From assembly GCA_012295275.1 (NCBI GenBank), contig CM022676.1, forward strand, positions 12,400,001 to 12,464,000: a DNA stretch of 64,000 bases. The letters are read 5' to 3'. The stretch comes from Chrysomallon squamiferum (taxonomy: Eukaryota; Animalia; Mollusca). Positions 1,911 to 64,000 of this stretch are shown here, piece by piece. The notes under the pieces are model-generated. The model did not search any database and was not told the origin of the DNA. It saw only the letters and a program-made list of their open reading frames with translations. The position numbers were made by a program, and so were the translations under genes. Every line of letters begins with the position of its first letter. The stretch's first letter is position 1.

Positions 1911-4900
1911 ATTAAGCATGATGACAGTCAAAAAAACTGAAGCTCTGCATTTGTAGTTTATTTTGTTGATGTCATTTATCATGCGGAAAGTTCACAGAAG
2001 TGATTATTGTACATTCTGTTTCAACCTAAAACTTCCCTGCACTAAAACAGCTTGTAAACTCTGAATAATAATAATACATAAATAAATAATAAAATGTTGT
2101 TTTATTATTATTATTATTAATTTATTTTTTAAGTTAGTTAGTTATTTTTTTATTATAGATAATAAATTTATAACTGAGAGATCAATATGCAGAAGAAATT
2201 AAGAATCATCAAACCAATTACAAATGACCAAGAACAAATTCACAAATAATTCAGGAGAATAAATACACAGTTAAGAACAACAAGCACAGAATTAGTCAAA
2301 TAATTAAACAATAAAGAAGAAAAGTAATTGTAAATGGTAACAAATTCAAAACAACTGGCATTTTCAGGAATACCAACACCAAACTCAAAAACAACATTTT
2401 GAAAGTTTGAAAAGATTTACATGGATATTGTCTGTCATTAGCAAGAAAATTCAAGTCAACATCTGAGATACTTTTCTTTATAAAAGGCCAAAATGAAAAT
2501 TTGTTATGGAAAATCTCATTTCTGAAGTGTAAGAATGTCATCTTGCCATTACTGTACTTGAACAGATGATTAGTGGATCCTCCATTGTGATTCTCTGCAA
2601 ACTGCTAGTGGTCACAAGATGAAATGCAGCTACAATCATCTCAAGGATCACCTTTTTTCAGCTTTCCTTGATTTTAGTCTTCAGTGCCTCCTCAGCTGAA
2701 CATATTCAAATTCCATTTACCATTTCATGAGACATTGTATTGAATACGTTCAGAACTTGTGATAGCCATTCTCCTTTCTTTGTGAACTTTGGTGGTGCAT
2801 CTTCCAAATGTTCTTGAGTTTGTTGACTTTATATGAATTGCCCTATTGTGTTGAAATGTTTTGGTAATATATAAACATGTGCAGTCTCAGAGTACAGCAC
2901 AGTTTAGTAACTTATTTTAATTCTCATAACTGACTTTAGTGGTGCAGGTGTCAGTTAAATGTAACTACATTGTTTTATACTCTAGGAAATTCTACTGACA
3001 TCACCATTGAAAGTAGGGTGCTCCAAGATCAGAAAATTTCTCTCTGAGATCTGTGGGTTTCTGTGTTGTCCTTAAGTGAGCAGATAGCTTCCTCCACATC
3101 TTGAACATTATCTTGTGTTTATGCTGATTTAGGTGATAATTTCCCATATTCCTCTCAGTCCATCTGGTACTTTTATACCTTCCTGTTTATAAATCTCTTT
3201 ACCAATGATGTCACTTCTTTCCAAGAAATTCAGTTGTGTTTCTTGGTCCATGGCAACCATTGTGAGAAAAACAAATCAGACTTAACCCATTATCAGAATG
3301 TGAGAGTATCATTTTTAGTGTCATGTAATGAAAACTATTAGTTTTGAAAATGAATATTTAGTCAAATGTGATTTGATAAGTTCAGTTTTCTACTAATATC
3401 TTAATTCATTATAATTTTATTATTTTTCAGGTTTGTCTCTACAGATGAATGGATCATCATCGTATGGAGTTATAAGAGAGAGATATACTTTGTTTTGTTC
3501 TGTTTCACCTGTTGATGATATATCATCAAATGTTCTATTTAAATCATATGAAAATGGTGCTTTTACTTCAGTTTGCTTGGTTAGCACATCCTGTGTTGAG
3601 TTTTTTCCACGCTCTGGTTATAACTGTGGATGTTTTCACAGCAGTGGAGAAACTCGTGTCTACAACTTGACAATACAAAGTCTGAACATTACTGATGACA
3701 CTAAATGGAGATGTTATCATACTTCCAGTTTCAGTAAAGACTTTATCTTGAACGTTTACTGTAAGTACTTTTGATAAAACAAGTTTCTAGTCTTTCATTT
3801 TGCTTTGTGATATTCAAAGCAAAAGAATAGTTCAGTTATAAGCATTGGCACAGACCAAAGAAAGCAAACTATTTGAAATCTTTATTAAATTTCAGACCAC
3901 ATTTTGCTTTGTATAATCTTTGAAATATAAACAACAAGCTATGACACAATACTGAATAAAAAGTTGGAAACACAAATTCTTTGTTTGGTACTATAGACCA
4001 AACTGGTTTTGTTCTGAACAGCTACATAGTATGAACACCGGTGATTTGTAATTGCTGATCATACTTTTATAATAAGTTTCTTGAATTGAGGAGAAGTGCA
4101 CCAACAATTGTGATGATTTCAAGAATCCAAGAGTCTTACCTTTCTGGATGGCTGATGATGATATTTTGTTTTGGAGAGAAAAAGGTTGATATTGCAACAA
4201 AATAGTTTGCTTTACATATTTATTGAAATTTCCTTTAACACTTAAATGTTTAAATGCAGTGAGAAACACATGGTTCAGCCAGTATCTGCTGTTATAGATC
4301 AGCTAATTATTGTCTGAAATCACCAGCGTCAGACTGTCTATAAAAACTATATTTATTCCTTATCACTGTGTAGAAATGTAAGACAGAATCAATATAAGTT
4401 ATTCCTCTCTCTGATGTCCAATCACTTAAGTTGGAAACTGTTGTTATCTCCAAATACTTTTCCTCTTCACAATTGCCAAATGTGGTGACTCCAATAAACA
4501 GTTTGCGTACTCATAGTGGATAAAGAAACATTAGCTTTATATAAGATAAATTAGTATGTACCTGTATCTTTGTTCTTTATAATTCTCAAGCGCTTCAGTA
4601 AATAAACATTAGTTTAAGTTTATATATTTGAGTAATATAATGGGTTATTGAAGTTAATGAAGTGAGTGGCATTGATAATTTTCGATCTCTTAAAATAAAT
4701 ATGTAAATAGACACAAACACATTCATTAGATATGTAGTGTTTAGAAAAGGGTTTATAGTGTTTTCAGTTTTTTCATTTTATCATTTCAGTTGGTCCAGAG
4801 AATGTGACTGTCACTGGTAACAAAGCTGAATTTGACGCTGATGGTAAAACTATTTTAACACTGAAATGCACAACTTCATCATCCAGTCCCAATGTGACCT

Positions 4901-7900
4901 TCACCTGGAAGAATCTGACCAGTGGTCAAGAGATTATTTCACAGAGTCCAGTCAGAGAAGAAGATGCAGGTGATGGGGGAAAACAATTCAGTCAAAATCT
5001 GACAATAACTCCATTCTGGTTTCAAGACAACAACACAATCAGATGTCAAGTGAAAAACACAGCAGTGTCAGTAGAAAGAGTTTCTGACATTGTACTAGAC
5101 TTGATATGTAAGTGTTAATTACACTGTTATTTTATATTAAACAGTTTATACATTGTACTAGACTTGATATTTAAGTGTTAAGTACACTGTTATTTTATAT
5201 TAAACAATTTATACATTGTACTAGACTTGATATGTAAGTGTTAAATACACTGTTATATTATATTAAACAGTTTATACATTGTACTAGACTTGATATGTAA
5301 GTGTTAATTACACTGTTATTTTATATTGAAGAGTTTCTGACATTGTACGAGACTTGATATGTAAGTGTTAATTACACTGTTATTTTATATTAAACAGTTT
5401 CTGACATTGTACTACACTTGATATGTAAGTGTTAAGTACACTGTTATTTTATATTAAACAGTTTATACACTGTACTAGACTTGATATGTGTTAAGTACAG
5501 TTATTTTATATTAAACAGTTTCTGACATTGTACTACACTTGATATGTAAGTGTTAAGTACACTGTTATTTTATATTAAACAGTTTATACATTGTACTAGA
5601 CTTGATATTCAAGTGCAAATTTACTTTGTTATTTTACACTTACTTTTAGCCAAATACAATGTTTAACGTGTTCAGTCTGTATGAATACTAAATTTTGTGG
5701 TTTGTAATTCATCAAAGTTTAAACTATTTTTGATCAAATCTTTTACATGTAAATTGAATTTAATGTATGTGTTCATTTTTATCAGCATGAATGTATTATT
5801 GATGTAATCTCTATTTATTTACTACATTTAATTTAATCCATTCAGTTGATGTTTTAAATTATGCAATACATTAGAAATCAGATCACTCAGTGATTACATA
5901 TATAGCGAATAACAACAAATCTGTACAAATTTCCTCAAACTAAACCTCTAAAATTGCTGACAATGTATTTGAAGTAGAATTTCTTTATGTAAAAATAGGT
6001 AATGATACATATTGTTACACAAACAGATCCGCCATTGAAGCCACCTGTAATATCAGGATACCAGACAGGAAATGTTGTGTATGAAGGTGACACGCTAAAC
6101 CTGTCATGTGTTGTCACTGGGGGGAAACCTTTGGTGACATCAGCAACGTTGTCTTGTTTTGGAGGTCAGAATATGACATCTTCACAGACTGTTGCCAACA
6201 GTGTTGTAGTAGATGTGAAATTTACAGTTACTGGAAATGTTAATATGAAGACTTGTCAGTGCAGTGCAAAACACAAGACAGGCAGATACAGAGACACTGA
6301 CAACAAAACCATCACAGTGTACTGTAAGTATTCTTATTACACTGTTCACTGTGTACTGTAATTGTTCTTATTACACTGTTCACTGTGTACTGTAAGTGTT
6401 CTTATTACACTGTTCACTGTGTACTGTAAGTATTATTATTACATTGTTCACTGTCTACTGTAAGTATTCTTATTACATTGTTCACTGTGTACTGTAAGTG
6501 TTCTTATTACACTGTTCATTGTGTACTGTAAGTGTTCTTATTACACTGTTCACTGTACTGTAAGTGTTCTTATTACACTGTTCTTATTACACTGTTCACT
6601 GTGTACTGTAATTGTTCTTATTACACTGTTCACTGTGTACTGTAAGTATTATTATTACATTGTTCACTGTCTACTATAAGTATTCTTATTACATTGTTCA
6701 CTGTGTACTGTAAGTGTTCTTATTACACTGTTCATTGTGTACTGTAAGTGTTCTTATTACACTGTTCACTGTGTACTGTAAGTGTTATTATTACATTGTT
6801 CACTGTCTACTGTAAGTATTCTTATTACACTGTTCACTGTGTACTGTAATTGTTCTTATTACACTGTTCACTGTGTACTGTAAGTGTTCTTATTACACTG
6901 TTCACTGTGTACTGTAAGTATTATTATTACATTGTTCACTGTCTACTGTAAGTGTTCTTATTACATTGTTCACTGTGTACTGTAAGTGTTATTATTACAT
7001 TGTTCACTGTGTACTGTAAGTGTTCTTATTACACTGTTCTCTGTGTACTGTAAGTGTTCTTATTAAATTGTTCACTGTCTACTGTAAGTGTTTGTATTAC
7101 ACTGTTCACTTTGTACTCTAAGTATTCATATTACACTGTTCACTGTGTACTGTAAGTGTTCTTATTAGACTTTTCTCTGTGTACTGTAAGTGTTCTTATT
7201 ACAGTATTCAGTGTGTACTGTAAGTGTTTTTGTTACGCTTTTCTCTGTGTACTGTAAGTGTTCTTATTACACTTTTCTCTGTGTACTGTAACTGCTCTTA
7301 TTGCCTTTTTCACTGTGTACTGTAAGTATTTTTATTACATTGTTCACTGTGTAATGTAAGTATTCTTATTACAGTTTTCGCTGTGTAATGTAAGTATTCT
7401 TATTACATTGTTCGCTGTGTAATGTAAGTGTTCTTATTACATTGTTCGCTGTGTAATGTAAGTGTTCTTATTACATTGTTCGCTGTCTAGTGTATGTTTC
7501 TTATTACATTGTTCACCTTGTAATTTAAGTTTTCTTATTTCAGTATTCACTGTAATTGAATTGTTCCCTACGTATTGTGAATGTTTATTACACTGTTCAC
7601 TGTGGACTACAAGTGTTCATATTACACTGTCTGCAGTGTACTGTAGTTGTTGATATTACTTTGTTATTTGTGCACTTTTTAACAGTGAACTGTACATTTT
7701 TTTATTATATTGTTCACAGCATACTGTAAGTATTCTTATTACAGTTTTAACTGTGTAATGTAAATTTTCTTATTAAATTATCACTGTGCAGTGGAACTGT
7801 TCTGATTATCTTATTCATGTGTTCTGTAAGTGTTTTAATTAGACTGTACAATGTGGACTGTAAGTGTTCTTATTGAATAGTTCACTACGTATTGTAAATG

Positions 7901-10900
7901 TTCTTATATTATTCACTCTGTATCTGTGTTCTTATTACACTGTTCACTGTGTACTGTAAGTGTTCTTATTACACTGTTCACTGTGTACTGTGTGTTCTTA
8001 TTACTTTGTTCACTGTGTACTGTAAGTTTTCTTATTATCTTGTTCACTGTGTACTGTAAGTTTCCCTATTATCATTATTTACATTGTGCAGTGTTCGGTA
8101 GTGTTATTTTTAAATAGTTAAATGTACATGTTTCATTATCTACATTTTCGTCAGACTATATTTACTTCTCGTATGAATCACTGTTGATAATGAAATGTTT
8201 TCGTTATTTAGTTATTGAAATATGTTTGTAGTTCCACCATCAGTCCCAAGTTTAACTGCAAGTTCAAATTTTCCCTGGTTGGAAAAAGAAAATAGAAATT
8301 TGACGTGCTCTGTGACAGAGAGAGGAAATCCTCCAGCTGACTTTGTCTGGTACAAAAATGGAGTCAAACAGTCTGGACAAAGCAAATCTGTCTGGCAGTT
8401 CAGAAACCTGACTTACAAAGAAAACAACCAAACATTCAGATGTGTGGCTCAAAATAATTTTACACTACACAAAAATGAAGTGAAATCTTCACCTGATACA
8501 ACACTCAATGTTTTCTGTGAGTATTAAACATGATGCTTTGTTATTTTTGTACTTTTTCATGACTTATTGAATCTTAATTTGATAACGAGTAGTGTTTATT
8601 GCAATGAAAAGTCCAAGAACGATAAACTATTTAATTATTATTAAGAATTATTCTTTGTTTGCTCAAAATAATTTATAGTTTATACGAGAAATCAAACTTA
8701 AGAACAAGTAAATAATGATTTAATTTACTACAGACAGTCCACGAGTAACTGTTGATAAATCTGGACCAATCACAAAGCGAGAAGGACAGAAGTTGGAGAA
8801 GATAGACTGTACTGCAGACAGCAATCCTCCAAACCCTACAATTACTTGGACATCAGATTCAAGTAAACCATGGAAGGGTGGTCTCCCTTTAGAGATAGCA
8901 GTACTTGACAGAGGGCAGCACGGTACATATACGTGTAAAGCGACAGTAACTTCGTCACTGGGAACACTGACAGGAACCTCACAAATTGAAATTGTAGTAA
9001 ACTGTAAGTTTTTAAAACTCTTTTTAAATTATATTATTTTATTACTTTTTATAATACATTATTGCACATTAAATCTTAATTAGATCCACAAATCACAAAT
9101 TGAAATTAGAATAAAGCATAATTTAAAAAAAAAAAAAATTAATATTAAATTTATTTGTTGATTAGTTATCTCTCTGATTAGTTAGTGTCGTTTTAATTTG
9201 TTTTAAATTTATTAATAGGTTTTTTTTTGTTTTCTAAACTGGTGGATTATTGTATATTCAATTAGATTCATCAATTACAAACTGCAATTGTAGTAAAATA
9301 TAAGAGGAATATTTCTTTTTCTCAATAATAATAATAATAATAACAACATTGTTCATTCTGATTTCTCTATGATGACTTTTTTAATGTTTTGGAATGTTAA
9401 ACAGATGCTCCTGATGTAGAAGTGACAAGTCAGACAACAAGTGAAGGACACAAACTGACTGTCACATGTGAGGCTTTTGGTCGACCAGACTCTTACACAT
9501 TTCACGGTTTTCAACAGAGCTGGAGGGATCAGTTTGTGAGAAAGGTGGAAGGTACTAAAGAAGAAAGAAACAAATATGTTTGGACAGTGCAGTCTGCTAG
9601 TTACAAAGATTCTGGTACATATCAATGTCTGGTAGACAATGGAATCAAAGACACAAACAACACATTGATTCAAAGCAACACAACTTTAGTACTTGTAAAT
9701 GGTGAGTTATTTTATTGAAAATTCTGTAAATTATATCAAAACGTCATACATATCAGTAATTATTTCACTTGAATTGTAACAAATTCTTTTATATGTTTAT
9801 AAAAGAATAACATCACTAAAAATCAGTGTGTTTCATTGTAAGAATTAAGAATCTTGATTAGGATGTTTTATGACTTCAGGAAACAAAATTTTAATTTCTG
9901 GCATAGTCACACACAAACTGAGGTCTTTGTTTCCACTTTCTATGAATTATTTTAATATATGTAGCTCAATGCTTGAAAACTCATTTTCACTGGTAGCCAG
10001 TCATGGTTGGAACTAGAAATACAACTGTTAATTCTGACTGGTTACTATGACTACAAATCATTCTTTAGATATATTAGAAATAACAAATTAGAAATAGAGA
10101 AAGCTTTATTTACATCACAGACAAATATTGTTAGAATAATGATGATGATGATGAAAATGATGATGATGATGTTTACAGGAAAACCAGTGATCACACTGGA
10201 GAGCAAGAGAGATGAAACAATTGGAGAAGAAACAAGCAGACGAGTCACGTTGTACAAAACAGTGTTTTCTCAAAGTGAAATTACGTCACACAAGTGGATG
10301 AAGAACAGTGACGTCATTAATGACACCAGAATAAAAACTGAAATGACTAAAACAAGAATAACTCTGAGTTTGTTTGAAAAAGTTGTTCATGATGACGGCT
10401 ACAACTTTACACTGGACATCAACATGTTTGAAGAGTCAGACACTGGACAGTACAGACTTGAAGTGTGTAATAATTTCACTTGTGAAATTTTCTCAACTCA
10501 TCTGACAGCAGCAGGTTTGTACTGTTTTTATTTCTGATGGTTTTATTAAAAGTTTTTTTCATTATGATAGTAATTAGATGACAATGTCTATAAGGTCATC
10601 TCACATATTTTTATTCTGGATGTGGCCACAGCTAAAGTCAAATCGTTAAAGCTGTGCTAATTTTGGGTAACAGACTTCATGGGATGATCTATATGACTTT
10701 TCATGCTAGCAGAGAAAGTCTTCTGTGTGTCCAGTGTTGTTTGTGTCAGGTGAGTGACAGTGTTTACAGCCCACCAGTTGTGTTAAACTCAGATGGGCAG
10801 TTGTTAGGACCCATGGTCAGATGTCCTTACAGTCAACACATTCAGTCATAATACAGGTGATGATGTACATAATATAAACACATTTTATTAAAATCAAGAG

Positions 10901-13900
10901 AAAACAACCCACATTTATGTCTGAAACTTGTACAAAAATAACAAAAATCAAATGTATTTAATATATATTATTGACATGAAAATTATTTAATGCAGTGTTG
11001 AAACAGTTGTACTATTTGATGGTAATAATTTGGTGACACTCTATAATGAAAATTAATTGATGTTATATATTTTGTTAATTCTGTGCGTTATTTGATGGAA
11101 GATGTCATCATTTTCATTATCTCATGTGTTCAACACTAAAAAAAGTATATGTAAAATAAAAGAAATCCATAAAAAAAAAAAAAAACAATCGTAAGAAAAA
11201 AGTCAAAATCCTAATGTCTATATTAAAGTTTATTTCCTGCTAGGACCTCCTTACATGCCAAGGTCATTCTCAGCATTTGGTTCTACAAGTGACACTGTAT
11301 TTCTAAAGTGGACAGCAGATTTTGCTGGAGGTCCATACACTCAGAGATTTTTAGTGGAATACAGAGACACAGATACAAAGTCTGACTGGAAACAACAGTG
11401 GTACAATGAACATGCTGAAAGAGATGAAGTTGTTTTTATGAACATCACAGGATTAAACTCAGGACACAAATATGTGTTCAGAGTTTTAGCTGAGAATTCA
11501 AGAAATCTCAGAAACCGCAGTCCATTTACATCTGAAGTAACCATAGAGACTAAAGGTAACATCTAATAATCATTTCAATTATCCAGAGAGAGAGAGAGAG
11601 AGAGACTGAAACTTTATTTAAATAGTTACAATTTTGAATTTTGACGATAATAATAATAACAACATTTTTAAAAAGTTTAAAGAAATTAACTGTAGAAATG
11701 GAGTTCTAGTATTGTAAGAAAAATGAAAAATACATATTTTGATATGTTAGCATATATATTTGAGTTTATTTATAAAATTGACTAAGTGTCCCTTTGGTAA
11801 CATCACATGTTTATATTAAATAAAAGAAGTTATTGCTTCTAATTTAAATTCTGTAAAGAAGTTTTATATTGAACAGCAATTTATCATTTATAAATAGTTT
11901 TTTTTTATATCTACAAATATGGAATGACAAATTTCTAATTTGTTTCTTGTACTGATTATAAAAGAAAATAAATGTTCTACATAAAGAGATATTTTACCTT
12001 CTCATGGACAGGAACAAACCGATACAAAATCTGATTATAAGCATGAATGTCTCATACCAGTTCATCTAAACTGTGATATAACCTGTTGATAAACATTCTT
12101 TGTAAAATCTGGTTATAAACATGAATGTCTCATACCAGTTCATCTAAACTGTGATATAACCTGTTGATAAACATTCTTTGTAAAATCTGGTTATAAACAT
12201 GAATGTCTCATACCAGTTCATCTAAACTGTGATATAACCTGTTGATAAACATTCTTTGTAAAATCTGGTTATAAACATGAATGTCTCATACCAGTTCATC
12301 TAAACTGTGATATAACCTGTTGATAAACATTCTTTGTAAAATCTGGTTATAAACATGAATGTCTCATACCAGTTCATCTAAACTGTGATATAACCTGTTG
12401 ATAAACATTCTTTGTAAAATCTGGTTATAAACATGAATGTCTCATACCAGTTCATCTAAACTGTGATATAACCTGTTGATAAACATTCTTTGTAAAATCT
12501 GGTTATAAACATGAATGTCTCATACCTTAGTTGTAAAATCTGGTTATAAACATTATTGTAAAAGCCTGTTGATAAACATTCTTTGTAAAAGCTGGTTATA
12601 AACATGAATGTCTCATACATTAGTTGTAAAATCTGGTTATAAACATGAATGTCTCATACCAGTTCATCTAAACTGTGTTATAACCTGTTTATAAATATAA
12701 TTAGGAAATAATTTAGCTTATTTAACAAATTATAGGTATTCTATTGTGCACTGATCAAAACACTGGCAATAATCTTGAATGTCTAGTGCCACGTCATCTA
12801 ACTCTGCTCATAAACATTTTAGTTAATTTAACAAACTTTAAATCATTTCTAAATTCATGATCAGTTTATGTTTTTTTTCTTCTTTTTAAAATAAAAATTA
12901 ATATTGAATAGAAATGAAAAAAAAAAAAAAAGGAAACATTTCAGTATTACTGATATTTCTTTTTAGAAAGTAAGATGTAATCATAATTGCAGTTAGTTGA
13001 ATTTGTGTTAAAATACTAGGTTAAATTTATTATTTGTTTCTTTCAGTAAAAGCGTCTTCAAGTGCAAATACTGGAGTTGTTATTGGAGGAGTTGCTGGCA
13101 GTGTTGTTGCATTAATAGTGATTGCAGTGATTGTGACAGTGATTGTGGCACGTCGAAGAATGATGCACAAGAAACGTGGTGAATGATTTTGTCATTGTCA
13201 TTAAAATATTGGATTCTTAATGCATATGGCATTTAACCTTTCTCACAAATTTTTGTTTTTAAATTTAAAATTTTAATAATAATGATAATGATAATAATGA
13301 TAATGACAATAATGATAATGACAATGATAATGATAATAATAAGAAAAGGAATTTATTGCTTGAAATGTTGATGTGTAATTGTATTGTGTATTCATATTTT
13401 TCTTTATAATTTTGTTTTGTTTAGGGTAAAATTAAATATAAAACCAATCATTGTGAACCCAATATATTATCTGTGAGAAAAAATGAAAATAAGACTGGCC
13501 GAAACCATTAGTATTGTTTTATTTCTCATATTCCTTTCAGATCATCTTGATTTATGAATATTGGTTCCTGTAACATCTCATACTTACTTGGCTAGAAATC
13601 TTAAACATTATTCCATGTGATAGAGTATTTAAGAAAAAAACAAGAAAAAAATATATGCATATGTATAGCTTTAAACTACAATTCCAAATGGTAATCATCA
13701 GGAAATACATATTAATATGATCAAACAACATTATATTATTATTCTCTGTTATAATTGTTAAATGGGATGGCTTAAATAAAAAGGTAGTTTTGAAGGATTA
13801 CATTTTTACTAAAAATCATTTATTAATTGTCTCTGTTGGTTAAAACCATTCTATGATGTGATTGGTCAGTACTTGCTGAACTTCTCTGTATGCAGTCAGT

Positions 13901-16900
13901 CACTGTGTCGGCTTTGTGTTTGCTTCTGGTTAGTGAGAAAGTTGAAGCAGAAAGTTGTGTGGGTGCTGTGCAAGCCCCAGAACTGAAATAATAAGATACC
14001 TGTATTTACAAAAAGATTTGTTGAAATGATCATGGGATCCAAAACATTTTCTGAAAGCAAAAAATCTGTAGAACATTCTGATCCCTGTTTGAATATTTTT
14101 TAATAACAAACATCTCCATTCACATTTTCATCTCATACAAAATGCAGATAATAATAATAGTAATAAAAATAATTTCAGTGAACAAATTTTATGCCAGTAA
14201 TATATCATTGATTTATTTTGTATGTAAGTAACTTTAGAATTAGCTATTTATATCTGCAACTTTGGAAACTTGTTATGTAATATAGTTATGCATTTTGTAT
14301 GAATTTTGTAATCTGTTAAATGGCTTCTTAATTGTTTTATTAACTAAAATAATGTTTTATTTATTTATTTAATTATTTATTTATTTATTTATTTTTTTTT
14401 TTTTTTTCAGGAAAGGATTCAGAGAAAGGACTGTAAGTGTATTACAAATATAAAAACAAAACTGAAATAATTAGATTGATGGTGTGTAAAAATATCCAAG
14501 AATTCTATTTTGTTTTAATAAATTCCTTTTATTGGTCACTTAATTATATTTTCTATTTTAAATTTCTTTGTAGAATGCTAAATGGTAGTAATGGCTGTGA
14601 CAGGTAATGAAAATATATGTTCACATGGTAAGACATAAATACTTGTAAATTTGTTTTTAAAAATAAAAACAATATTGTCTCAGTCCATTATTTGAAATGA
14701 TAATGTTACAGTTCTGTTGAAAATGTCACATTTGTTTCATTTAAATATAAAATTTGGTTAAGTTTATAAAATCTAATCACCTTTAATTGTCCTTGAAAGG
14801 TTTAGAAACTGCCAAATGCAAAAGCAAAAGATGGCTAGATACACAGATCTTACTTCATTTCATAGCATAGTTATTAATGAGCTAAAAACTAATTCAGGTT
14901 TACCTATGTACATTTTCTTCAGATGTTCTTTTCTCCCCAAAAAGCTTTAATATTCTGAGTAACAAAAAACCATTAGACATTTAAAGCATAAAATATAGTA
15001 AAAAAATATATATATACCTACATATATATATGCCTTACTGCTTTCATAATCTCATGAATAAATTGATAAAATTATTTAATTTAGCATGGAGAAGGATGAA
15101 CATAAACATTTGTTGTTCACTGATAAAACTATTTTCTAAATACCTTTTCTCTTTTACATTCTCTTTTACAATCTCTATGAATCGAATTTTAAATATATAT
15201 TTATTCTGATACAGCAGAATGTGTTAATAGAATTTTGCTTAGTGTTAGTTATTAATACAGAGAAATCAGTGTATTTAATTTGATTTTCTTCTTCAGAAAT
15301 GGATCAAGCTCATCCTCACATTCTCAGAAATGAAGGTAAGATGTGTTCTAATAAGAATTGATTCCATCAAGTTAATTATACTTCTACACATTTTCTTAAT
15401 AATGATGAGACATACTTTAGTTCTCTATAATTAATAGAAAAGTACTTAAGAAAACAAAAATGATTGTTAGTTTAAAGTTTGAAGTTTATTAATACTATTG
15501 TTTTAATAATTATGGTTAAAACAGTTGGTAATTTCTCTTTTTATTTTAACAGAAATGGATCCTAATCCTATTTATGAAAGCTCAGCTGGAGCTAGACCTC
15601 ACATCCTTAAAAATGAAGGTATTTTGTAAAATATTTTAGTATATCTATCTATTCATGGATTAATGAATTCTGTCTTTATGTTCTAATGTAAAAACATGTG
15701 ACAAAATGAAATAATGTTCAGGTATAAAATTCCTCCTGATTTTTCATGCACAGATTTGTTGTTTGATTCACTGGAATAATATTGGATTTTTGACTATGCA
15801 CATATTTAGAAAATAGAGGAAAATTTGAATTTGATTTTAAAATATGCACAGCTTGAATGTTAATAAAGAATTGCATTTCCTAATATTTCATTCCTTCAAG
15901 TTTTTAGATCATGAGGTAAATGAAAAAGTGAATGATTAAATAGAACTGATATCCTAGACTTAGACCAGAAATAAAATATAATTAAATACATTTCTTGATG
16001 TCACTATCTTCACTAGCAACAAGTAGATCAGTATTGCAATATGTAAAATGTTTTCTTTGTGAAAATGTGCAACTAATGGATTTTTTATATTTTTATTCAC
16101 AGAAATGGAGCCAAATCCAATATATGTCACATCTGAACAGGACAGTCGGATACTGGAAAGTAAAGGCAAAAATAAATAATTATTTAGTAATCAAATCATA
16201 TTTTATGGGAAGATTACGTTAATGTGTCCTCATATTTTCTTATTCAGAGTGACTGACATTTTCATTTTGGTCATGATATTATTTCAGCTTAGAAAGAAAG
16301 CTTAATAACCAAATTAATCAGAAATTGCCTTGAATGTGTAATGGTCAGCTTGTTTGCACTGTTATAAACTAAGAAATTTATTGTTAAAGATTTTAAAAGC
16401 TGGACTAGTAAAATAGAAATGACACCAACTGTATAAAATTAACTCTTTCTGATCCATTTTAATTGTTTTCTTAATTTAGGTGTTTAATTCATTTACCAAA
16501 CTTTTCCTAAAATATAGCAGTTAATATTAATGAAATAATTTGGTGATTTTCACAATTTTAGTTTATCTTTGTGATACGTAAGTATATATTATTATTTCTA
16601 CATTATGTAGGTGTCTGATGTCATGGAGAGTAAGAAATAAATAAAGTATTACTTTTATTGTGATGTGAATAACATTTACAATTATTATCAGGCATTTTAT
16701 GGAACATCTAAGATTGTATTAATACTTGTTTGAATACATTGTATAATTTCAACATGCATACACTAGTATCACCTGTTTTTATTATACAGTCAAATAAAAA
16801 AGATAAATTTATAATTTATTAAAATCAGATTACATTAATGTAATTCAATAAATTAGGCTTTGAGCCAAAAATACAAACACATTTCATATATATATATAAT

Positions 16901-21641: not shown

Positions 21642-23440
21642 ATAATAGTGAAAAGTGTAAAAAAATGAAGGAGATTTCATGTATATGTTTAGTGAGTGTC
21701 AACTATTTTCTTTATATTTTTAAGGGAGAAACTATTTAAAAACTGAAAAATAACTGCATTCAACTTATGGAAGGAAACTCCAGCTTAAAAGGAAAAATAA
21801 AATTAGAAATATTGTAAAGTAATCAATAATACTGATGTTAATTATTGATTTCTTTAAATGTTTTTAAAATACACTATATATATATAATAAATTGCATTGT
21901 TATTCAGCTAAACTATTTTTAACAATTTCATGTTTATAGCTGAGAAGAAAAACAAGAAAGGCAAAAAAGGTAATTAAATTTAAACTTTCATTTGAATGTT
22001 CTGTTTTGTAAATAACACTAAACATTGTGTGTTAAAAAAAAAATAAAGTAAAGGAAAATGAATAAAAAAAGCTATTTGAGATTTTCTGTCAGTTTTATTG
22101 TAATAGTTTCTGTTAATAAGGTCCAGAAAGTAGTACACTGTCTGAAAGGCAATATACTTTTTATTTCAGTATTTATGAAAAGTATTTTTATTTTAAATTT
22201 TCACCTACCAGTGATATTTTTAATTAAGCTGGTTAATCAAGATTTAATTTAAGACAAAAGTGTAAACATCTGTTTGCTAGTGTGGAGCTGGCAAGAGTCT
22301 AATAAACTTGTAAGCAATAACAACTTAAATATTCATGTAATTATATTATGTATAATAGCAATTTATTTTTATTAATTTTCTTCTTAGCTTCAGGCTGACT
22401 ATAAATTATTTTATTATAACTACAGATGTGTGATATTTGGATTATTACATTGTTTAATACAATATTATCAGGTGGTGAAGAAGTAGTAAAGTCTTTAAGA
22501 ACTGGAAATGCTGGTGAGCCTTTATTTAATTTTTATTTGAAATGTTTAAATATTTATAATCTGCATTTTTCATTTTTATGTTACTGATACTAAAAAGAAG
22601 TAGAAGTTATTATTTCTGGATAACAATCAAATTTCTCTTTACATATTATTATTATTATTTTTTTTTTAGTAAAATGCTTGACTTTTTTTAGGAAACATTG
22701 TTTTCATACTGATTCTGTCTCCAAATGAAAGGATATAGACACCTTGATGGTTAACCCAGACCGATATTTGAGACAGACTGAAATGTTGCTTAAGAATTTA
22801 AATGGGATTATATAAGTAGTATTTACAGAAACATGTCACTTGAAAATAATTTTATTTGTTAATGATTTTATTTCTTTTGTTCTTTAATTAAAAGATACCT
22901 TGAATCGTTTTACTTTTAAGCATAATTACTTGTAATGAAAATATGGTTGCCATTTAGAGATAGAACTTTTGGAAACATAACAGAAAATGCAATGCCAATG
23001 GACCGTCTGTTAACCTGAACAATACTTTTGAATGTTTTCTAGAGATATTAAAATTTTAGTCTTAAAGTTAAATTCATTATAATTATCTGGTGATTGTTAA
23101 ATACCTTGTTGTCTGTTAATTCACAACAATAAACTGTAAAACAAAAAATAACATAAATTATTTCTTTATAATATTTTCCTTGATTTAATGCTCATGGAGA
23201 GTAAATTTAATAAATTGTGAAATTTGATTACTTATATTTTAGGTGATGTATATCAGAATGTTGAACTTCAGAATGTCTACACTAATTCAGCTTTTGATGA
23301 CAATGTTTATCAAAACGATAAACAGAAAAGTGATACAACTGTGAGTTAACTATTTACTATGTTAATGGTCCTGTAATAATGAATAATAATAATGCCAAGG
23401 AAATATAATTTATATATAAATATATAAATTATATTATATA

Positions 23441-23494
<54 letters not shown>

Positions 23495-23529
23495 TATATA
23501 TATAAATATATATATATAAATTATATAAA

Positions 23530-23561
<32 letters not shown>

Positions 23562-24273
23562 ATAAAAGAACGTTTTTTTTTTTTGCTGCATTTCCTTACA
23601 AAAATAAACCTATTTTAGGCAAAAAATACAAAATAGCCTAAAAAGCTAATTAACTAATTTATTTGAAGTGAAACTGTTTTCACTTTGAGATAACTATGAG
23701 ATCAGTGAATATGTCTGTTTTAAAAAAAAATAAATATATATATTCAGTTTAGTACAAATTATTTGGTCTGTTTCAGGTATCAGTATTTTTTTAATTATCA
23801 AATTTTCTGCATCTAGACAATCCAAATATACCCTACAGAGCACACAATTTCTGAACACAAAAATGTATCGAATACAAATTCTGAAAATGGCAAATAAATT
23901 ACATGTGCAGTTGTAAACATTAGCTTATATAAAATCAGTATTTAATTATTGTAAACTTCATTCCATTAAAATGTAATTAAATTATAAATTATAAAAATGT
24001 AATGTCTTTGTTTGTTTTGTTTTCTTGTTTTGTTGTTATTTTTATTTTATTTTTTTAAAAGAACTATAATGAAGAAAACAATCCTAATTATAATGGACAT
24101 ATTTTTTTCTTTCTTAGGCTCATGCTCAAGGACTTATTTATGTAGATCTTGACTTCAGTGGCTACAGTCCATCTAGGCAAGTCCTTGGAGATGACAATGA
24201 AAAAACAGAATATGCAAGTATAGATCATGGCAAAGTAGGAGAACCTTTGCCAGATGATGAACAAAATAATTAG
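407..24273 (+). CDS. Gene A: multi-exon IgSF type I receptor (leader, 7 Ig-like, FN3, TM, cytoplasmic NPxY/YxN/ITIM/ITSM); nephrin/sidestep-like architecture, putative inhibitory receptor
   Basis: GT-AG exons join in frame with phase-1 introns: 407-467, 3431-3760, 4790-5107, 6027-6323, 8232-8516, 8734-9003, 9405-9701, 10179-10514, 11244-11555, 13047-13178 (TM). Cytoplasmic micro-exons follow, to a terminal exon 24118-24273 ending TAG. A few junctions at 14.4-14.6 kb and 16.1-17.2 kb are ambiguous. Confidence 0.85.
1105..1230. mobile_element. Possible pogo/Tigger-like terminal fragment
   Basis: Begins CAGTGGTACCT like the TIR at 25486 and is locally GC-richer. No matching second end was found. 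Confidence 0.3.
1848..1909. repeat. (CT)n microsatellite
   Basis: Direct reading. Confidence 0.97.
3431..3760 (+). CDS. Gene A D1: N-terminal V-like Ig domain with 6 Cys
   Basis: tttttcag acceptor and T|GTAAGT donor. YTLFC...YNLTIQSLNITDDTKWRC Ig pattern. Near-identical copies at 38323 and 55230. Confidence 0.9.
4790..5107 (+). CDS. Gene A D2 Ig domain (C2/CD80-like)
   Basis: LKCTTSSSSPNVTFTWKN...IRCQVKN. Canonical splice sites. Paralog at 59808-60125 has the same 318 nt length. Confidence 0.9.
5085..5620 (+). repeat. 63-bp tandem repeat (~8.5 units) containing the D2 exon end and splice donor
   Basis: Unit cattgtactagacttgatatGTAAGTgttaattacactgttattttatattaaacagtttata recurs at 5088, 5151, 5214, 5277, 5341, 5405, 5468, 5526, 5589. 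Confidence 0.95.
6027..6323 (+). CDS. Gene A D3 Ig domain
   Basis: PPVISG...LNLSCVVTGGKP...CQCSAKH. Paralog at 60670-60966 is also 297 nt. Confidence 0.9.
6312..8070 (+). repeat. 34-bp minisatellite (~50 units, degenerate around 7480-7920) seeded by the D3 exon end/donor
   Basis: Unit actgtgtactGTAAGTgttcttattacactgttc. First two donor positions are 6324 and 6358. Confidence 0.95.
8232..8516 (+). CDS. Gene A D4 Ig domain
   Basis: NLTCSVTERGNPPADFVWYKNG...FRCVAQN. Splice sites tgtag / T|GTGAGT. Confidence 0.9.
8734..9003 (+). CDS. Gene A D5 Ig domain
   Basis: IDCTADSNPPNPTITW...HGTYTCKA. Splice sites present. Confidence 0.9.
9405..9701 (+). CDS. Gene A D6 Ig domain
   Basis: VTCEAFGRP...DSGTYQCLVDNG (DxGxYxC motif). 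Confidence 0.9.
10179..10514 (+). CDS. Gene A D7 atypical Ig domain lacking the canonical disulfide
   Basis: KWMKN...DTGQYRLEVCNNFTC. Splice sites tttacag / G|GTTTGT. Confidence 0.85.
11244..11555 (+). CDS. Gene A fibronectin type III domain
   Basis: GPP...VFLKW...GG...FLVEYR...ITGLNSGHKYVFRVLAEN FN3 signature. Confidence 0.92.
12026..12695 (+). repeat. 78-bp tandem repeat (~6.5 near-perfect units plus fragments)
   Basis: aaaatctggttataaacatgaatgtctcataccagttc... recurs at 12026, 12104, 12182, 12260, 12338, 12416, 12494. Confidence 0.95.
13047..13178 (+). CDS. Gene A transmembrane exon
   Basis: Translates VKASSSANTGVVIGGVAGSVVALIVIAVIVTVIVARRRMMHKKR: an uncharged hydrophobic helix with a basic stop-transfer. 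Not in the ORF track. Confidence 0.92.
14411..14432 (+). CDS. Gene A cytoplasmic micro-exon (GKDSEKG)
   Basis: Strong poly-T cag acceptor and GTAAGT donor. Needs a phase-correcting exon near 14574-14627 whose boundaries are unclear. Confidence 0.55.
15297..15335 (+). CDS. Gene A cytoplasmic micro-exon (EMDQAHPHILRNE)
   Basis: 39 nt, phase 1-1, homologous to the next two exons. Confidence 0.75.
15553..15618 (+). CDS. Gene A cytoplasmic exon with NPIY motif
   Basis: EMDPNPIYESSAGARPHILKNE, 66 nt, phase 1-1. Confidence 0.8.
16103..16159 (+). CDS. Gene A cytoplasmic exon with second NPIY motif
   Basis: EMEPNPIYVTSEQDSRILE. The donor is either GT at 16160 or GC at 16166. Confidence 0.7.
17760..17852 (+). 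CDS. Gene A cytoplasmic exon
   Basis: NDQSVKETRQMGGVGARAKEPKQQKVEEVK, 93 nt, phase 1-1. GC-richer island in an AT-rich intron. Confidence 0.7.
17966..18038. repeat. (CA)n microsatellite
   Basis: Direct reading. Confidence 0.95.
18483..18578 (+). CDS. Gene A cytoplasmic exon with YSKV motif
   Basis: DDLQNLYSKVKKMNESKTDKSAEKKKLKAQSS, 96 nt, phase 1-1. Confidence 0.78.
21940..21969 (+). CDS. Gene A Lys-rich micro-exon (EKKNKKGKK)
   Basis: 30 nt, phase 1-1, tttatag / G|GTAATT. Confidence 0.65.
22472..22513 (+). CDS. Gene A micro-exon (GGEEVVKSLRTGNA)
   Basis: 42 nt, phase 1-1, atcag / G|GTGAGC. Confidence 0.65.
23243..23340 (+). CDS. Gene A exon with three YxN motifs
   Basis: GDVYQNVELQNVYTNSAFDDNVYQNDKQKSDTT. 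Phase 1-0, GTGAGT donor. Confidence 0.85.
23403..23560. repeat. (TA)n-rich microsatellite region
   Basis: Direct reading. Confidence 0.9.
24118..24273 (+). CDS. Gene A terminal coding exon with ITIM + ITSM
   Basis: AHAQGLIYVDLDFSGYSPSRQVLGDDNEKTEYASIDHGKVGEPLPDDEQNN*. Phase-0 acceptor ttcttag. AATAAA near 24592. Confidence 0.88.
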   Translation, partial: AHAQGLIYVDLDFSGYSPSRQVLGDDNEKTEYASIDHGKVGEPLPDDEQNN

Positions 24274-25485
24274 AACAGCAATCCACAGAATTCTTAAAAA
24301 TGAAAAAAATACACAAATTGAAAATCTTGTTAATAACATAGGTATGTGTTGTTTTTTAAAAATATTTTTAATAATATAGGTATGTATAAGATTTTGAAAT
24401 CTAATTCTTGATGTTTGTATATTAATTTAGCCCTTTTGTATTAACTGTGATATTTTTTATTTCATTTCATTTTTGTTTTTCTTCTAATACAGTGTGTATA
24501 TATAGTTGATAGCTATAACTTGTGCTTTAGAAATAATTTTACTAGTAAATATGAATAACATTTAAAAATGTCATATACACTTTATTTATCTAATAAAATA
24601 AAAATCTAATAAAACTTTTGACATAACTTTGTTGGTCTTTTGACTTTATTTTTTTCCAATTATTTTATGAAGAGAAATAATTTGTGAATATGTGATTTCA
24701 TAAGTAAATAAAATCTCTGAATTTTCATGTATATATATGAGTATATGTGTGTGTGTTTATATATATATATTCTGAAAATCTATTGGTCTTCCTGTTAATT
24801 TTATATTTAATTACTGACAAAATGTTTATAATGCTCATAATATGAAACGAAATGCTAATATATATATATATCTATATATATAGAAATATATTAAATATTT
24901 TATACTTTCTAGAGATGATAAAATATATGCATTTTTTGCAATTATTTACTTATTCAAGATTTTTTTAAATATTTTTAAAAATTCCATTAAAAACTGTACA
25001 TTTCTTAAAAGGCTATGTTTTTAAAAACATTATTTTATTTTATTTTAATTTCAAATACATGATTTGTTTTTCACACTTTTTGGTTTTTGAAGGCTAAAGT
25101 TTAAATAAGTGTTAAAACAGTGTAACATTTCTAAATTTATTTTTTCAGTCATGTAAAAATTATTTTTTAATTTTCTATCTTATTTTCATGAAATGTTTGA
25201 AGATTAAAACTATTAAGAAATTGCTTTCTTCTCTTCTGATATTATTGATAGCAGGAATACAATTTCACTGTTTTAGAAATTAGACTGTTTTGGAATATTT
25301 ATGTCTGTGGAAGTATTCATGTTTTTCAGTTGAATTGAAACCTGTGAAAATAACTTTTCCAGTCAAAGTGGCTGAAACATACCAATACTGCTGACCTTTG
25401 CAATGATAATTACAAATTTGTTTTCCAAAAATAATGTTTACTCAGAGAAGCCTTTCAGAAAAAACAAGCTGAATGTTTGAATATA

Positions 25486-30479: not shown

Positions 30480-31780
30480 ACACATTATTTCATTGATACA
30501 GCATTTCTAAATTAAGTCTGCAGTGACATGTTGTCACGGTGTCAACGTCGTAATTTAATGTCAACTGATGAAACGGAGGGGTACAATGAGACCATTAAGT
30601 GGAACATTGATAACAGAAGTACAATGAGACCATAATCTCAGGAACAGTGATTCCCGATTCAGAGCAATTTATAGGTCATGGACATTAAGGATATGAGGAT
30701 GGTTTTCACGTATCCTGTGATCCAGTGGGTCCCACGCATGCTCATTTGGGGACAAGTCAGGGGACTTTATTGGCCAGTTCAACACTTGGATGTGGTTTCG
30801 CTCAAGAAGATTAGTGGCCAGTCTAGCGGTTATCTGGTCTAGCGTTGTGATGTTGAAACAGAAAGCGAGGATGTTGCTGCAGGACTGGAATGACTACTGG
30901 TGTAATGATCTCGTCGCATTAACGTTGAACAGTCATGTTTCCGTGAATGAAAACAAGATCTGTTTCACCTCCACCATGAATGCCGGCCCAGTCCATGACG
31001 CTCCCACTGCCATATCGGTCATGCTGATGACGTTGTCTGCATCATATCTTTCTTCCCGTCGCCTCCATACATGACGCCTACCATCCAGACAGTGAACACA
31101 AAACCTGGATTCGTCTGTGAATAATGTCTGATCCCATTGTCTGCGTCGCAAGTGTTGGTTTATTCTGACTCATCTCAGACGTTCCTGAATGTGACGAGCT
31201 GTCAGGGGAACACCTACAACAGAGCGACGTGCTTGTAATCAAACTGCACAGAGACGGTTTCGGACAGTTTGAGCATGAATTCCAGTGCCTATTGTTTGCT
31301 GCAAGGTCGAGCACTTTCGAACCTGTGACGTCGAGATGACGTCACTAAATACCCATCTTCTCTTGGAATAGTTAATCATGGTCTATCAGAACGTGGTCGA
31401 TCTCGCACTTGCCCAGTTTGGTGTACACGTTGTCGGAGTCGTGATATGGTACTGTCATGAACACGAAAGTACTGAGCGACGTTGTATATGGATATTGGCC
31501 AGTGTTAACCGTTCCATTGCTTCATGACGTTGATTTTTCGTTAAGCCTGGACAGCAACGCAATATCAGAAGATAAACTCTTCCTTTCTGTTCTAGATAAT
31601 AATGGTTTAGTGCATCAATATGTTTGCACGTGCAGTACACATAGCCGTGTGCGATATGACAAACGGTGTTGTTTTCATTACCCAAAGCGACAGGGCATAT
31701 GCAACTAACATATTACCAAGTTTTATCACATTATTTTAAATTATTTACAAAAACTTGCTAAACGTTTTTCGTTAAATATA
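30480..31780 (-). mobile_element. Degenerate Tc1-family transposon
   Basis: Frameshifted minus-strand pieces: WDQTLFTDESRF (first catalytic D), FQHHNARP, WPIKSPDLSPNEHAWD and an N-terminal RDRPRS HTH-like part. Ends are approximate. Confidence 0.88.
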
Positions 31781-34708: not shown

Positions 34709-34763
34709 ATGGCGCTGTTGAGATATTTACTAGTTTTTCTCACGCTTGTTAGATACTGTGTAG
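34709..34763 (+). CDS. Gene B leader exon MALLRYLLVFLTLVRYCV(G)
   Basis: Signal-peptide-like, with G|GTAAGA phase-1 donor. Homolog at 53007. Confidence 0.85.
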
Positions 34764-38926: not shown

Positions 38927-38966
<40 letters not shown>

Positions 38967-44548: not shown

Positions 44549-44596
<48 letters not shown>

Positions 44597-45061
44597 TCGA
44601 ACACACATTTTATTCTCTTCATGAAGAGCATGTATCAATAAAATTAATACCAGCAATTACAGTTAACATACAAAATTGAGTATGTCAAATACTTTCTCTA
44701 GCCATTGATCTTTACAAATAGTTTTAGTATTCAGTTATTTGTAAAATTTGTTGAGATATTCGGCTTGATGAGGAAATATTATTTTCCCTTAATACAGCCA
44801 TTAATATTATTTTTCCCCACAAAGTGACTTGGACATATTTTTAATTGTTGTTCTTGTTGTTCTTCTTCTGAATTATCTTCGTCAGATTTCCACATTCAAA
44901 AATAAAATAACGTATTGAATACAGAAATGTATTAGTTAGTGTTTTAAATTATGAGTGGTGTTCATTATACTTTACCGGTATAGAATTAGGACATATTTTC
45001 TAAAATAACTGATTAGAAACAAATATATTTTTTAAGTTAAATTTCAAATATTGTATGTATG

Positions 45062-45093
<32 letters not shown>

Positions 45094-63446: not shown

Positions 63447-63483
<37 letters not shown>

Positions 63484-63853: not shown

Positions 63854-64000
63854 GTGAGTTATTTTATTGTATATTTTGTAAATTATGTTAAGAGTTAAAA
63901 TAGTATTCAAATCAGTGTATCACTTTATTTCTAAACATATATTTTGTATATACGACAAAAATAACATCACTAAGAATCATTTTCTTTCATTGTAAGCTTT

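Follow-up and report, generated by a model that had tools for sequence, protein, structure and literature searches.

Conserved paired tyrosine motifs in the terminal coding exon of a predicted gastropod Ig–FN3 receptor

We analysed a 64,000-nucleotide stretch of the Chrysomallon squamiferum genome (hereafter the window; assembly GCA_012295275.1, contig CM022676.1, positions 12,400,001 to 12,464,000) and modelled on its forward (+) strand a gene of 13 exons, gene A, in which every border is AG/GT and 983 codons are open up to one terminal stop. The predicted product is a type I receptor with, in order, an N-terminal domain, six Ig exons, a fibronectin type III (FN3) domain, a transmembrane (TM) segment and a tyrosine-rich tail. 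This Ig-fold membrane layout is read from matches to Pfam Ig families in exons e2 to e7, to fn3 in exon e8, and from the TM exon. Phase 1-1 applies to the Ig, FN3, TM and cassette exons, and the last two exons, c3 and c4, meet in phase 0. No signal-peptide (leader) exon was found upstream of position 3431 within the window.

Exon e1 (3431..3760, +; AG/GT, phase 1-1) encodes an N-terminal cysteine-rich domain that looks V-like by eye; it matched no Pfam family above threshold, giving a sub-threshold match only, and is 34% identical to residues 16–136 of P0004, a 963-amino-acid protein of the gastropod Gigantopelta aegis (blastp). An AlphaFold2 model of this domain, built from a four-row alignment, had a mean pLDDT of 34.4 and was unusable. 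Exon e2 (4790..5107, +; AG/GT, phase 1-1) encodes an Ig domain of the C2-set_2 or Ig_3 type (C2-set_2, E 5.9e-07), and exon e3 (6027..6323, +; AG/GT) encodes an Ig-like domain with an Ig_3 match under the curated cut-off (E 3.8e-4) and 33–34% identity to G. aegis P0004 and P0009 (blastp). Three further Ig domains follow in exons e4 (8232..8516, +; AG/GT, phase 1-1; Ig_2, E 9.8e-09), e5 (8734..9003, +; AG/GT; Ig_3, E 1.6e-08) and e6 (9405..9701, +; Ig_3, E 2.3e-08), the last being 40–42% identical to G. aegis paralogues (blastp). Exon e7 (10179..10514, +), an Ig-like domain with weak Ig_3, I-set and V-set matches, is 41–43% identical to G. aegis paralogues at an E value of about 1e-24, and the FN3 exon e8 (11244..11555, +; fn3, E 4.5e-09) is 35–41% identical to them (both blastp). 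The TM exon (13047..13178, +; AG/GT, phase 1-1), a hydrophobic stretch and then a basic stop-transfer run, aligns with TM segments of G. aegis proteins.

Four exons are predicted to make up the cytoplasmic tail. Cassette exons c1 (15553..15618, +) and c2 (16103..16159, +), both bordered by AG/GT and of phase 1-1, each carry an NPIY (NPxY) motif and are paralogous, at 46% identity; skipping either predicted cassette leaves the reading frame intact. Exon c3 (23243..23340, +; phase-1 acceptor, phase-0 donor ACT/GTGAGT) contains three YxN motifs (VYQNV, VYTNS and VYQND) and is 57% identical over 30 amino acids to residues 493–522 of the G. aegis protein P0003 (blastp). The terminal coding exon, c4 (24118..24273, +), has a strong phase-0 acceptor following a polypyrimidine run and translates into a 51-amino-acid peptide ending at a TAG stop (24271–24273). 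The preliminary description of this DNA had proposed a pair of inhibitory motifs in this exon and depended on the frame in which it is spliced. That frame is borne out by the model, because the phase-0 acceptor of c4 fits the phase-0 donor of c3 and the predicted splice is open from the TM exon to the stop. An AATAAA hexamer (24592..24597, +), 319 bases past the stop codon, is a possible polyadenylation signal and weak evidence as such, because the hexamer is common in DNA of 30% GC. Three metatranscriptome RNA runs from one study contained 5–9% of the sampled words of 22900–24700, which is too small a share to serve as evidence of expression.

Searching the c4 peptide with phmmer against 1.84 billion representative proteins returned 2 matches only, P0001 (E 4.6e-4), which is XP_041346832 of G. 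aegis, and P0002 (E 1e-3), a protein of 61 amino acids. The c4 peptide is 54% identical to P0001 over 46 amino acids (blastp), and in a three-tail alignment it is 41–50% identical to the two other sequences, with both motif tyrosines kept. Residues G5, L6, Y8, D12, F13, P18, S19, Y32, D36, K39 and P43–D47 are invariant in all three tails. In a RefSeq model of G. aegis, a homologous tail is joined to an Ig–FN3–TM protein in the same order as in gene A. P0003, a cluster member of 585 amino acids, has an Ig-Ig-FN3-TM arrangement followed by three repeats that contain tyrosine, then a YxN region and the same bis-tyrosine tail, and its tail matches the window at 23242–23316 and then at 24130–24264, in that order (tblastn). 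When each exon was compared by blastp with P0003–P0009, exons e1, e3–e8 and the TM exon proved collinear with P0004. Conservation is higher in the tail, at 54–57% identity to G. aegis, than in the ectodomain exons, which reach 33–43%.

From its exon order and these matches, gene A fits a gastropod family of Ig–FN3 receptors like that of G. aegis LOC121391345. The G. aegis receptors XP_041378941 and XP_041346832 resemble it in having an N-terminal domain, Ig repeats, FN3 and TM in collinear order, and a tail in which tyrosine repeats, a YxN region, two tyrosine motifs and a PLPD-acidic end follow one another as in gene A. They differ in the second motif, which has valine instead of threonine at −2, and in a spacing of 23 instead of 24 residues; some G. 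aegis paralogues also have a different, ITAM-like tail, unlike that of gene A. The paralogues of the two receptors have been named automatically as hemicentin-1-like, CD22-like, syg-2-like and others, and all these G. aegis proteins are uncharacterised. A literature search of papers available without subscription found no experimental study of the G. aegis receptors and no paper on the tail family of gene A. A coarse word-index protein search, of a kind poorly suited to short tails, retrieved nothing with the c4 tail or with residues 495–585 of P0003.

The two motifs in c4 are LIYVDL (24133..24150, +), within a wider conserved block G-L-[IV]-Y-x-x-[LI]-D-F, and TEYASI (24205..24222, +), in which Y32 and D36 are unchanged in the three aligned tails. 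In a study in eLife 2021 (PMC8631942), an ITIM is defined as S/I/V/LxYxxI/V/L and an ITSM as TxYxxV/I, and the proposed assignment of LIYVDL as an ITIM and TEYASI as an ITSM agrees with these definitions. The motif tyrosines, encoded at 24139–41 and 24211–13, stand at positions 8 and 32 in the c4 peptide, and the translation thus upholds the claimed distance of 24 residues; the distances in the three tails are 24 (c4), 23 (G. aegis) and 25. The first motif has leucine at −2, and the second has threonine, valine and threonine in the three tails. The valine makes the second motif of G. aegis (VxYxxI) ITIM-type and not ITSM-type, and the ITSM ('switch') identity is therefore not conserved in that species.

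We compared the motif pair with two chance expectations. The 742 six-frame stop-to-stop open reading frames of at least 35 amino acids in the window, comprising 39,528 residues, contain 175 single ITIM matches and 21 single ITSM matches, and only one ordered ITIM-to-ITSM pair with tyrosines 18–26 residues apart, which is the c4 pair. When the 51-amino-acid peptide was shuffled 300,000 times with its composition preserved, a control that concerns this exon alone, an ordered pair at 18–26 residues arose at a frequency of 0.00005 (about 5 per 100,000) and a pair at exactly 24 residues at a frequency of 0.000007. The c4 motif pair exceeds chance expectation, because it is unique in the window, rare in shuffles and built on tyrosines that are invariant in relatives.

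The preliminary description had likened this arrangement to the tails of SIRPα and PD-1, a comparison that is exact in spacing for SIRPα but not for PD-1. According to Supplementary File 4 of PMC8631942, the tyrosines of SIRPα (Y429 and Y453) are 24 residues apart, as claimed, but those of PD-1 are 25 apart, and the other ITIM–ITSM receptors listed there fall between 18 and 26, with the exception of CD300LF, whose tyrosines are 35 apart, and of the entries for the SLAM family. The authors of that study ascribe the spacing of 18–26 to 1:1 bivalent binding of tandem SH2 domains. The distance in c4, and those of 23 and 25 in its relatives, lie inside this range of about 18–26. No sequence relationship to SIRPα, PD-1 or Siglec tails emerged from the phmmer search of 1.84 billion representatives, which gave no vertebrate match. 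A phmmer search of the Protein Data Bank (PDB) with the c4 tail gave 0 matches, and SIRP chains were absent among the best 60 PDB matches listed for a G. aegis paralogue; as for membership of the SIRP family, tail homology to SIRPα was not detected in either the representatives or the PDB. The likeness to SIRPα and PD-1 is therefore at the level of motifs only, and with just two c4 matches, both non-vertebrate, convergence is indistinguishable from a homology that is too short to be detected.

When the three tails were combined into a profile, its best PDB match was the PZR (MPZL1) peptide of entry 9MQ5 (9mq5_B), a borderline hit (E 0.037, 17.4 bits, about 30 residues) in which the first motif of c4 and its D-x-S-G flank line up with the PZR peptide at every residue. 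A match of this length and strength does not distinguish homology from convergence. The PZR peptide is bound to SHP2 in doubly phosphorylated form, the N-SH2 domain holding pY241 and the C-SH2 domain holding pY263 (PMC12415285).

Taken together, these observations suggest that c4 closes the coding sequence of a single-pass receptor gene with 13 exons, whose ITIM and ITSM, once phosphorylated, likely dock an SHP-type phosphatase bidentately, a reading to which we give a probability of roughly 0.6. In the mechanism that we envisage, a Src-family kinase would phosphorylate the tail tyrosines after ligand engagement, an orthologue of SHP-2/Corkscrew would bind the first motif through its N-SH2 domain and the second through its C-SH2 domain, and this bidentate docking would open and localise the phosphatase. 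The outcome would be that tyrosine-kinase signalling is dampened or re-routed in the expressing cell. The upstream NPxY and conserved YxN motifs would add adaptor docking, as NPxY docks PTB domains and phosphorylated YxN docks SH2 domains of the Grb2 type. Because NPxY motifs (two) and YxN motifs (three) accompany the c4 pair in the tail, it is likely, as far as its sequence tells, to be a multi-docking scaffold rather than purely inhibitory. None of these observations speaks for the 'don't-eat-me' type of role that the preliminary description also suggested.

Other partners could use the same tyrosines. The conserved bis-tyrosine tail may dock a different SH2 effector, such as a SHIP-type inositol phosphatase, Csk or a SAP-like adaptor, which we regard as unlikely. 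SHIP has a single SH2 domain, which gives no reason for keeping a distance of 23–25 residues, yet this distance, which has been linked to bivalent binding by tandem SH2 domains, is kept in all three tails. Precedents for such partners do exist: the oyster receptor CgNCAM1, with a two-ITIM tail, is reported to co-precipitate with CgSHIP2, an inositol phosphatase and not an SHP (PMC11841013), SHIP1/2 bind ITIMs too (PMC9546547), and SH2D1A/B adaptors bind ITSMs (PMC8631942).

Alternatively, the tyrosines might act mainly unphosphorylated, as YxxPhi and NPxY sorting signals for endocytosis or phagocytic uptake through AP-2 and PTB proteins. Both YVDL and YASI match the YxxPhi pattern, each of the two cassette exons contributes an NPxY motif, and sorting signals also need the invariant tyrosines and the hydrophobic residues at +3. 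Sorting has no need, however, of the conserved G-L at −3/−2, the D-F at +4/+5 or the 23–25 spacing, and a plain YxxPhi signal needs no particular residue at −2, whereas the residues found there (leucine in the first motif; threonine, valine and threonine in the second) fit the preferences of SHP-type SH2 domains. The residue-for-residue alignment of the first motif and its flank with a peptide that binds SHP2 also speaks against sorting as the main role, and we consider it improbable. Finally, the pair could have arisen by chance in a non-functional or unexpressed exon, whether of a pseudogene or mis-called. The missing leader exon and the abundance of lone ITIM matches in AT-rich DNA would be in keeping with this, but the rarity of the pair in both controls, the identity of c4 and its invariant tyrosines in two other sequences, and the fact that 13 of 13 exons are open and phase-consistent make it highly improbable.

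Two neighbouring paralogues, genes B and C, share the N-terminal exon of gene A (e1), the exons of the three genes being 90–92% identical. In gene B, one exon of consistent phase encodes an ITAM-like YxxL-x7-YxxI pattern, although the same pattern occurs 47 times in background open reading frames. Alignment of this exon with the ITAM-like tails of G. aegis was weak, its score being reached by 88–112 of 2000 shuffles, and a tblastn search of the window with those tails gave no convincing match (best E 0.16–1.2). That gene B may carry an ITAM-like tail is a weak lead. It would be in line with a lophotrochozoan paired-receptor cluster of independent mollusc origin, in which near-identical N-terminal recognition domains, perhaps kept so by gene conversion, would be coupled in gene A to an ITIM–ITSM tail with predicted SHP binding and in gene B to an ITAM-like tail, together with a glutamate in the TM helix; we hold this to be doubtful. 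Such a cluster would mirror the logic of vertebrate NK-cell, SIRP and CEACAM receptors, and both tail types occur in G. aegis too. Because its N-terminal exon is common to neighbouring genes, the locus is a candidate for the study of paired receptors outside vertebrates. Elsewhere in the window, a 257-amino-acid open reading frame (47847–48617) considered as a gag-like gene was dropped, as it had no Pfam match.

The annotation of gene A as a gene of an expected kind is well supported. If both SH2 domains of an SHP-type phosphatase do bind its tail, selection would be acting on the bidentate ITIM–ITSM geometry in a mollusc lineage and not in vertebrates alone. Gene A would then be a conserved example, defined by its sequence, that extends the oyster receptors to a second class of molluscs, and its short peptide could be tested to learn the age of the tandem-SH2 'ruler'.

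Among invertebrates, the oyster CgIgIT is said to carry an ITIM plus an ITSM and to recruit SHP2. As described in PMC11841013, the inhibitory oyster receptor CgNCAM1 is built of three Ig domains, FN3, a TM segment and a two-ITIM tail, a likeness to gene A in described architecture; CgIgIT, CgIgIT2 and CgSiglec-1 are cited there as further oyster IgSF receptors. Another, CgIgR, has an ITAM and works with Syk (PMC6994640). Like gene A, these are mollusc type I proteins that combine Ig domains, in some cases alongside FN3, with ITIM or ITAM tails, and the sources describe them as regulating haemocyte responses. ITIM-bearing Ig–FN3 receptors are thus already described in oysters, and gene A adds one more. 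The Alr family of Hydractinia is also a tandem cluster of diverging IgSF genes, whose tails are of either ITAM or ITIM type, and SHP, SHIP and Syk/Shark homologues are encoded in the same genome (PMC9546547). The family differs from gene A in being cnidarian and in its domain make-up, and its tails diverge more than its ectodomains, the opposite of gene A, where conservation is higher in the tail.

Close parallels in motif geometry are the vertebrate receptors SIRPα (SHPS-1), PD-1, BTLA, Siglec-5, Siglec-9, Siglec-11, PECAM1 and G6b-B, all type I IgSF proteins with an ITIM followed by an ITSM at 18–26 residues. They differ from gene A in the ectodomain, which in gene A comprises seven Ig-type exons and FN3. 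PZR has an ectodomain of a single Ig domain, and its tail differs from c4 in carrying two ITIMs, 22 residues apart. SIRPα, Siglec-5 and Siglec-11 have their tyrosines at exactly 24 residues, as in c4 (Supplementary File 4 of PMC8631942). PZR resembles c4 in having two tyrosine motifs, which in PZR form a 1:1 bidentate complex with SHP2 by occupying its N-SH2 and C-SH2 domains (PMC12415285). With its further NPxY and YxN motifs, the predicted tail of gene A is best seen as a scaffold like that of PZR or SHPS-1, and not as a pure off-switch.

The terminal exon of gene A, a 13-exon Ig/FN3 receptor model (3431–24273, +), encodes a pair of tyrosine motifs. This exon, c4 (24118–24273, +), is a 51-codon open frame ending in a TAG stop, with a polypyrimidine run and an AG directly upstream. 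Its translation contains LIYVDL (24133–24150, +) and TEYASI (24205–24222, +), which match the ITIM and ITSM consensus sequences quoted in PMC8631942, as claimed in the preliminary description. The motif tyrosines stand at positions 8 and 32 of the c4 peptide, confirming the claimed distance of 24 residues. ITIM-like strings by themselves are common in this AT-rich eukaryotic DNA (GC 0.23–0.41, mostly about 0.30, in 2-kb windows): the 39,528 residues of six-frame ORFs of at least 35 amino acids in the window contain 175 ITIM-like and 21 ITSM-like strings. In the same residues, the c4 pair is the single ordered ITIM-to-ITSM pair at 18–26 residues. Such a pair arose at a frequency of 5e-5 when the 51-residue c4 peptide was shuffled 300,000 times, a null that covers the peptide of this exon alone, unjoined to the rest of the tail.

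Exon-sized stop-to-stop ORFs on the + strand form a chain from 3.4 to 24.3 kb. Among the gene A ORFs, Pfam recognized Ig families in six exons and fn3 in one, and no family for the first exon or the two last exons. All 13 exons have AG/GT borders. The Ig, FN3 and transmembrane (TM) exons and two small cytoplasmic cassette exons, c1 (15553–15618) and c2 (16103–16159), are of phase 1-1; exon c3 (23243–23340, +) passes from phase 1 at its acceptor to phase 0 at its donor, ACT/GTGAGT, and the c4 acceptor at 24117/24118 is of phase 0. Joined by coordinates, the exons give 983 codons with a sole, terminal stop, and the frame is kept when one or both of the 57–66-base cassette exons are omitted. Beyond the TM segment the tail has eight tyrosines, in two NPIY, three YxN, the ITIM, one GYSPS that is not conserved, and the ITSM. 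A signal-peptide exon of gene A was looked for within the window and not found. Minisatellites open the introns after exons e2 (5075–5615, +; 63-bp unit, 8.6 copies) and e3 (6312–8076, +; 34-bp unit, 52 copies), with a counterpart array in the paralogous gene C (about 60955–62206). Every unit copies the exon end plus the GTAAGT donor, so that the true donor has dozens of potential 5' splice sites downstream of it.

Searching with c4 alone by phmmer against 1.84 billion cluster representatives, we found two matches with an E value of 1e-3 or better: P0001 (XP_041346832, 101 aa), from the deep-sea gastropod Gigantopelta aegis, and P0002, a 61-aa protein from an assembled contig. A G. aegis member of the P0001 cluster, P0003 (XP_041378941, 585 aa), has the order Ig, Ig, FN3, TM, three tyrosine-containing repeats, YxN region and two-tyrosine tail, and tblastn of its tail against the window matched 23242–23316 and then 24130–24264, in the same order. 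The three repeats of P0003 are of the cassette type, to be compared with c1, c2 and a third, degenerate copy without NPIY just upstream of c1 (15284–15337, +). Six more paralogues were found in G. aegis, and the 963-aa P0004 is collinear with exons e1 and e3–e8 and the TM exon of gene A. Because the gastropod homologues are collinear, the splice model gains support that is independent of the reading of splice sites.

The homology makes a mollusc the most likely source of the window; identities between gene A and G. aegis range from 33 to 57%, too low for that source to be G. aegis itself. They are 54–57% in the tail exons versus 33–43% in the ectodomain exons, as would be expected if a signalling module had been conserved while the ectodomain in front of it changed quickly. 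G5, L6, Y8, D12, F13, P18, S19, Y32, D36, K39 and P43-L44-P45-D46-D47 are invariant in the alignment of the three tails. Both motif tyrosines are conserved in all three, whereas the intervening tyrosine is not, and the distance between them is 24, 23 and 25 residues. The second motif has T, V and T at position −2, and is accordingly of ITIM type in the G. aegis tail and an ITSM in the other two.

Two paralogues lie downstream of gene A on the same strand. Gene C (55205–64000, +), which runs past the window end, shares 84–96% amino-acid identity with gene A over six exons. Its 3.2-kb segment at about 55703–58907 carries two extra Ig exons that gene B shares and gene A lacks, implying either a deletion in gene A or a mosaic gene C. 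Between A and C, the overall dN/dS ratio is 0.45; the first exon alone gives 1.23, from only two synonymous and nine nonsynonymous differences. In gene B (38304–45455, +), the first exon is 90% identical to that of gene A and is followed by five further Ig/FN3 exons, the next two common to gene C and the remainder only about 30% identical to gene A. The TM exon of gene B (to 43702) has a glutamate within the hydrophobic stretch, and an ITAM-like exon (45363–45455, +; phase 1-1; YxxL-x7-YxxI) lies 1.66 kb downstream of it; no terminal exon of gene B was identified in the window. The tails of the G. aegis proteins P0004 and P0005 contain YxxL-x8-YxxL. These tails weakly suggest that genes A and B are paired receptors, of which gene B may be the activating partner. 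The ITAM motif is, however, common in background ORFs, with 47 instances, many of them within a TA microsatellite, and the alignment score of the ITAM-like exon against the G. aegis tails was reached by 88–112 of 2,000 shuffles.

The signal-peptide exon of these receptors is probably represented by a short exon at 34709–34763 (+), 3.5 kb upstream of the first Ig exon of gene B: it opens with ATG, encodes a hydrophobic peptide (MALLRYLLV...) and has GTAAGA as its phase-1 donor. Similar copies lie near 46900, 53006 and 54930, between genes B and C; the part of the window upstream of gene A yielded none. A GC-richer patch between A and B holds interrupted ORFs (30672–31341, −) similar to a DDE transposase of the Tc1/mariner type (weak Pfam DDE_3 match, E 0.002, under the curated cut-off), and another between B and C holds the longest ORF of the window (47847–48617, +; 257 aa), for which a Pfam search gave no match.

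According to Supplementary File 4 of PMC8631942, the ITIM–ITSM distance is 24 in SIRPalpha (Y429/Y453), Siglec-5 and Siglec-11, in agreement with the SIRPalpha spacing given in the preliminary description, 25 in PD-1 and BTLA, 23 in PECAM1 and Siglec-9, 26 in G6b-B and 18 in Siglec-3; its authors relate spacing to 1:1 bivalent engagement of tandem SH2 domains. When all PDB chains were searched with a profile built from the three mollusc tails, one match had E <0.1, the 33-residue MPZL1/PZR peptide of 9MQ5 (borderline, E 0.037), with an alignment covering the first motif and its D-x-S-G flank, and the second motif. In 9MQ5, the tandem SH2 domains of SHP2 are bound to doubly phosphorylated PZR, pY241 on N-SH2 and pY263 on C-SH2 (PMC12415285). 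From the receptor spacing and the match to the SHP2-bound PZR peptide, we propose that a Src-family kinase would phosphorylate the c4 tyrosines and that a SHP-2/Corkscrew-type phosphatase would then dock bidentately on both. The conserved YxN and NPxY motifs would, from the known specificities of such sites, bring in adaptors of the Grb2 and PTB type, respectively; with this further recruitment the gene A tail resembles a scaffold of the PZR/SHPS-1 type more than it does a pure inhibitor.

A SHIP-type partner in place of SHP is a real alternative, as oyster CgNCAM1, with three Ig domains, FN3, TM and a two-ITIM tail, is reported to bind CgSHIP2 (PMC11841013), but a single-SH2 partner would leave the conserved tyrosine spacing unexplained. 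Plain YxxPhi/NPxY sorting signals would account for the tyrosines and +3 residues, but not for the conserved −3/−2 and +4/+5 residues. The conservation and the uninterrupted frame across 13 exons make a chance match or a pseudogene unlikely; conservation of the tail disfavours chance more strongly than does the shuffle count.

The likeness to SIRPalpha and PD-1 drawn in the preliminary description holds for the motif pair and, in SIRPalpha, for its 24-residue spacing. Searched by phmmer against the PDB and the 1.84 billion cluster representatives, c4 showed no homology to the SIRPalpha, PD-1 or Siglec tails, and the resemblance is thus one of short linear motifs. Among the PDB matches listed for the G. 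aegis ectodomain, the best were CEA, FcRL5, Robo, DSCAM, NCAM2, CD22 and SYG-2, which are generic tandem-Ig proteins. Our literature search found no paper on this tail family of gene A and G. aegis. ITIM/ITAM-tailed invertebrate IgSF receptors already described include oyster CgNCAM1 (PMC11841013) and CgIgR (PMC6994640), together with, from titles cited in PMC11841013, CgIgIT, CgIgIT2 and CgSiglec-1, and the Hydractinia Alr family provides a cnidarian case (PMC9546547). Receptors of this kind are already known, and gene A is an addition to them.
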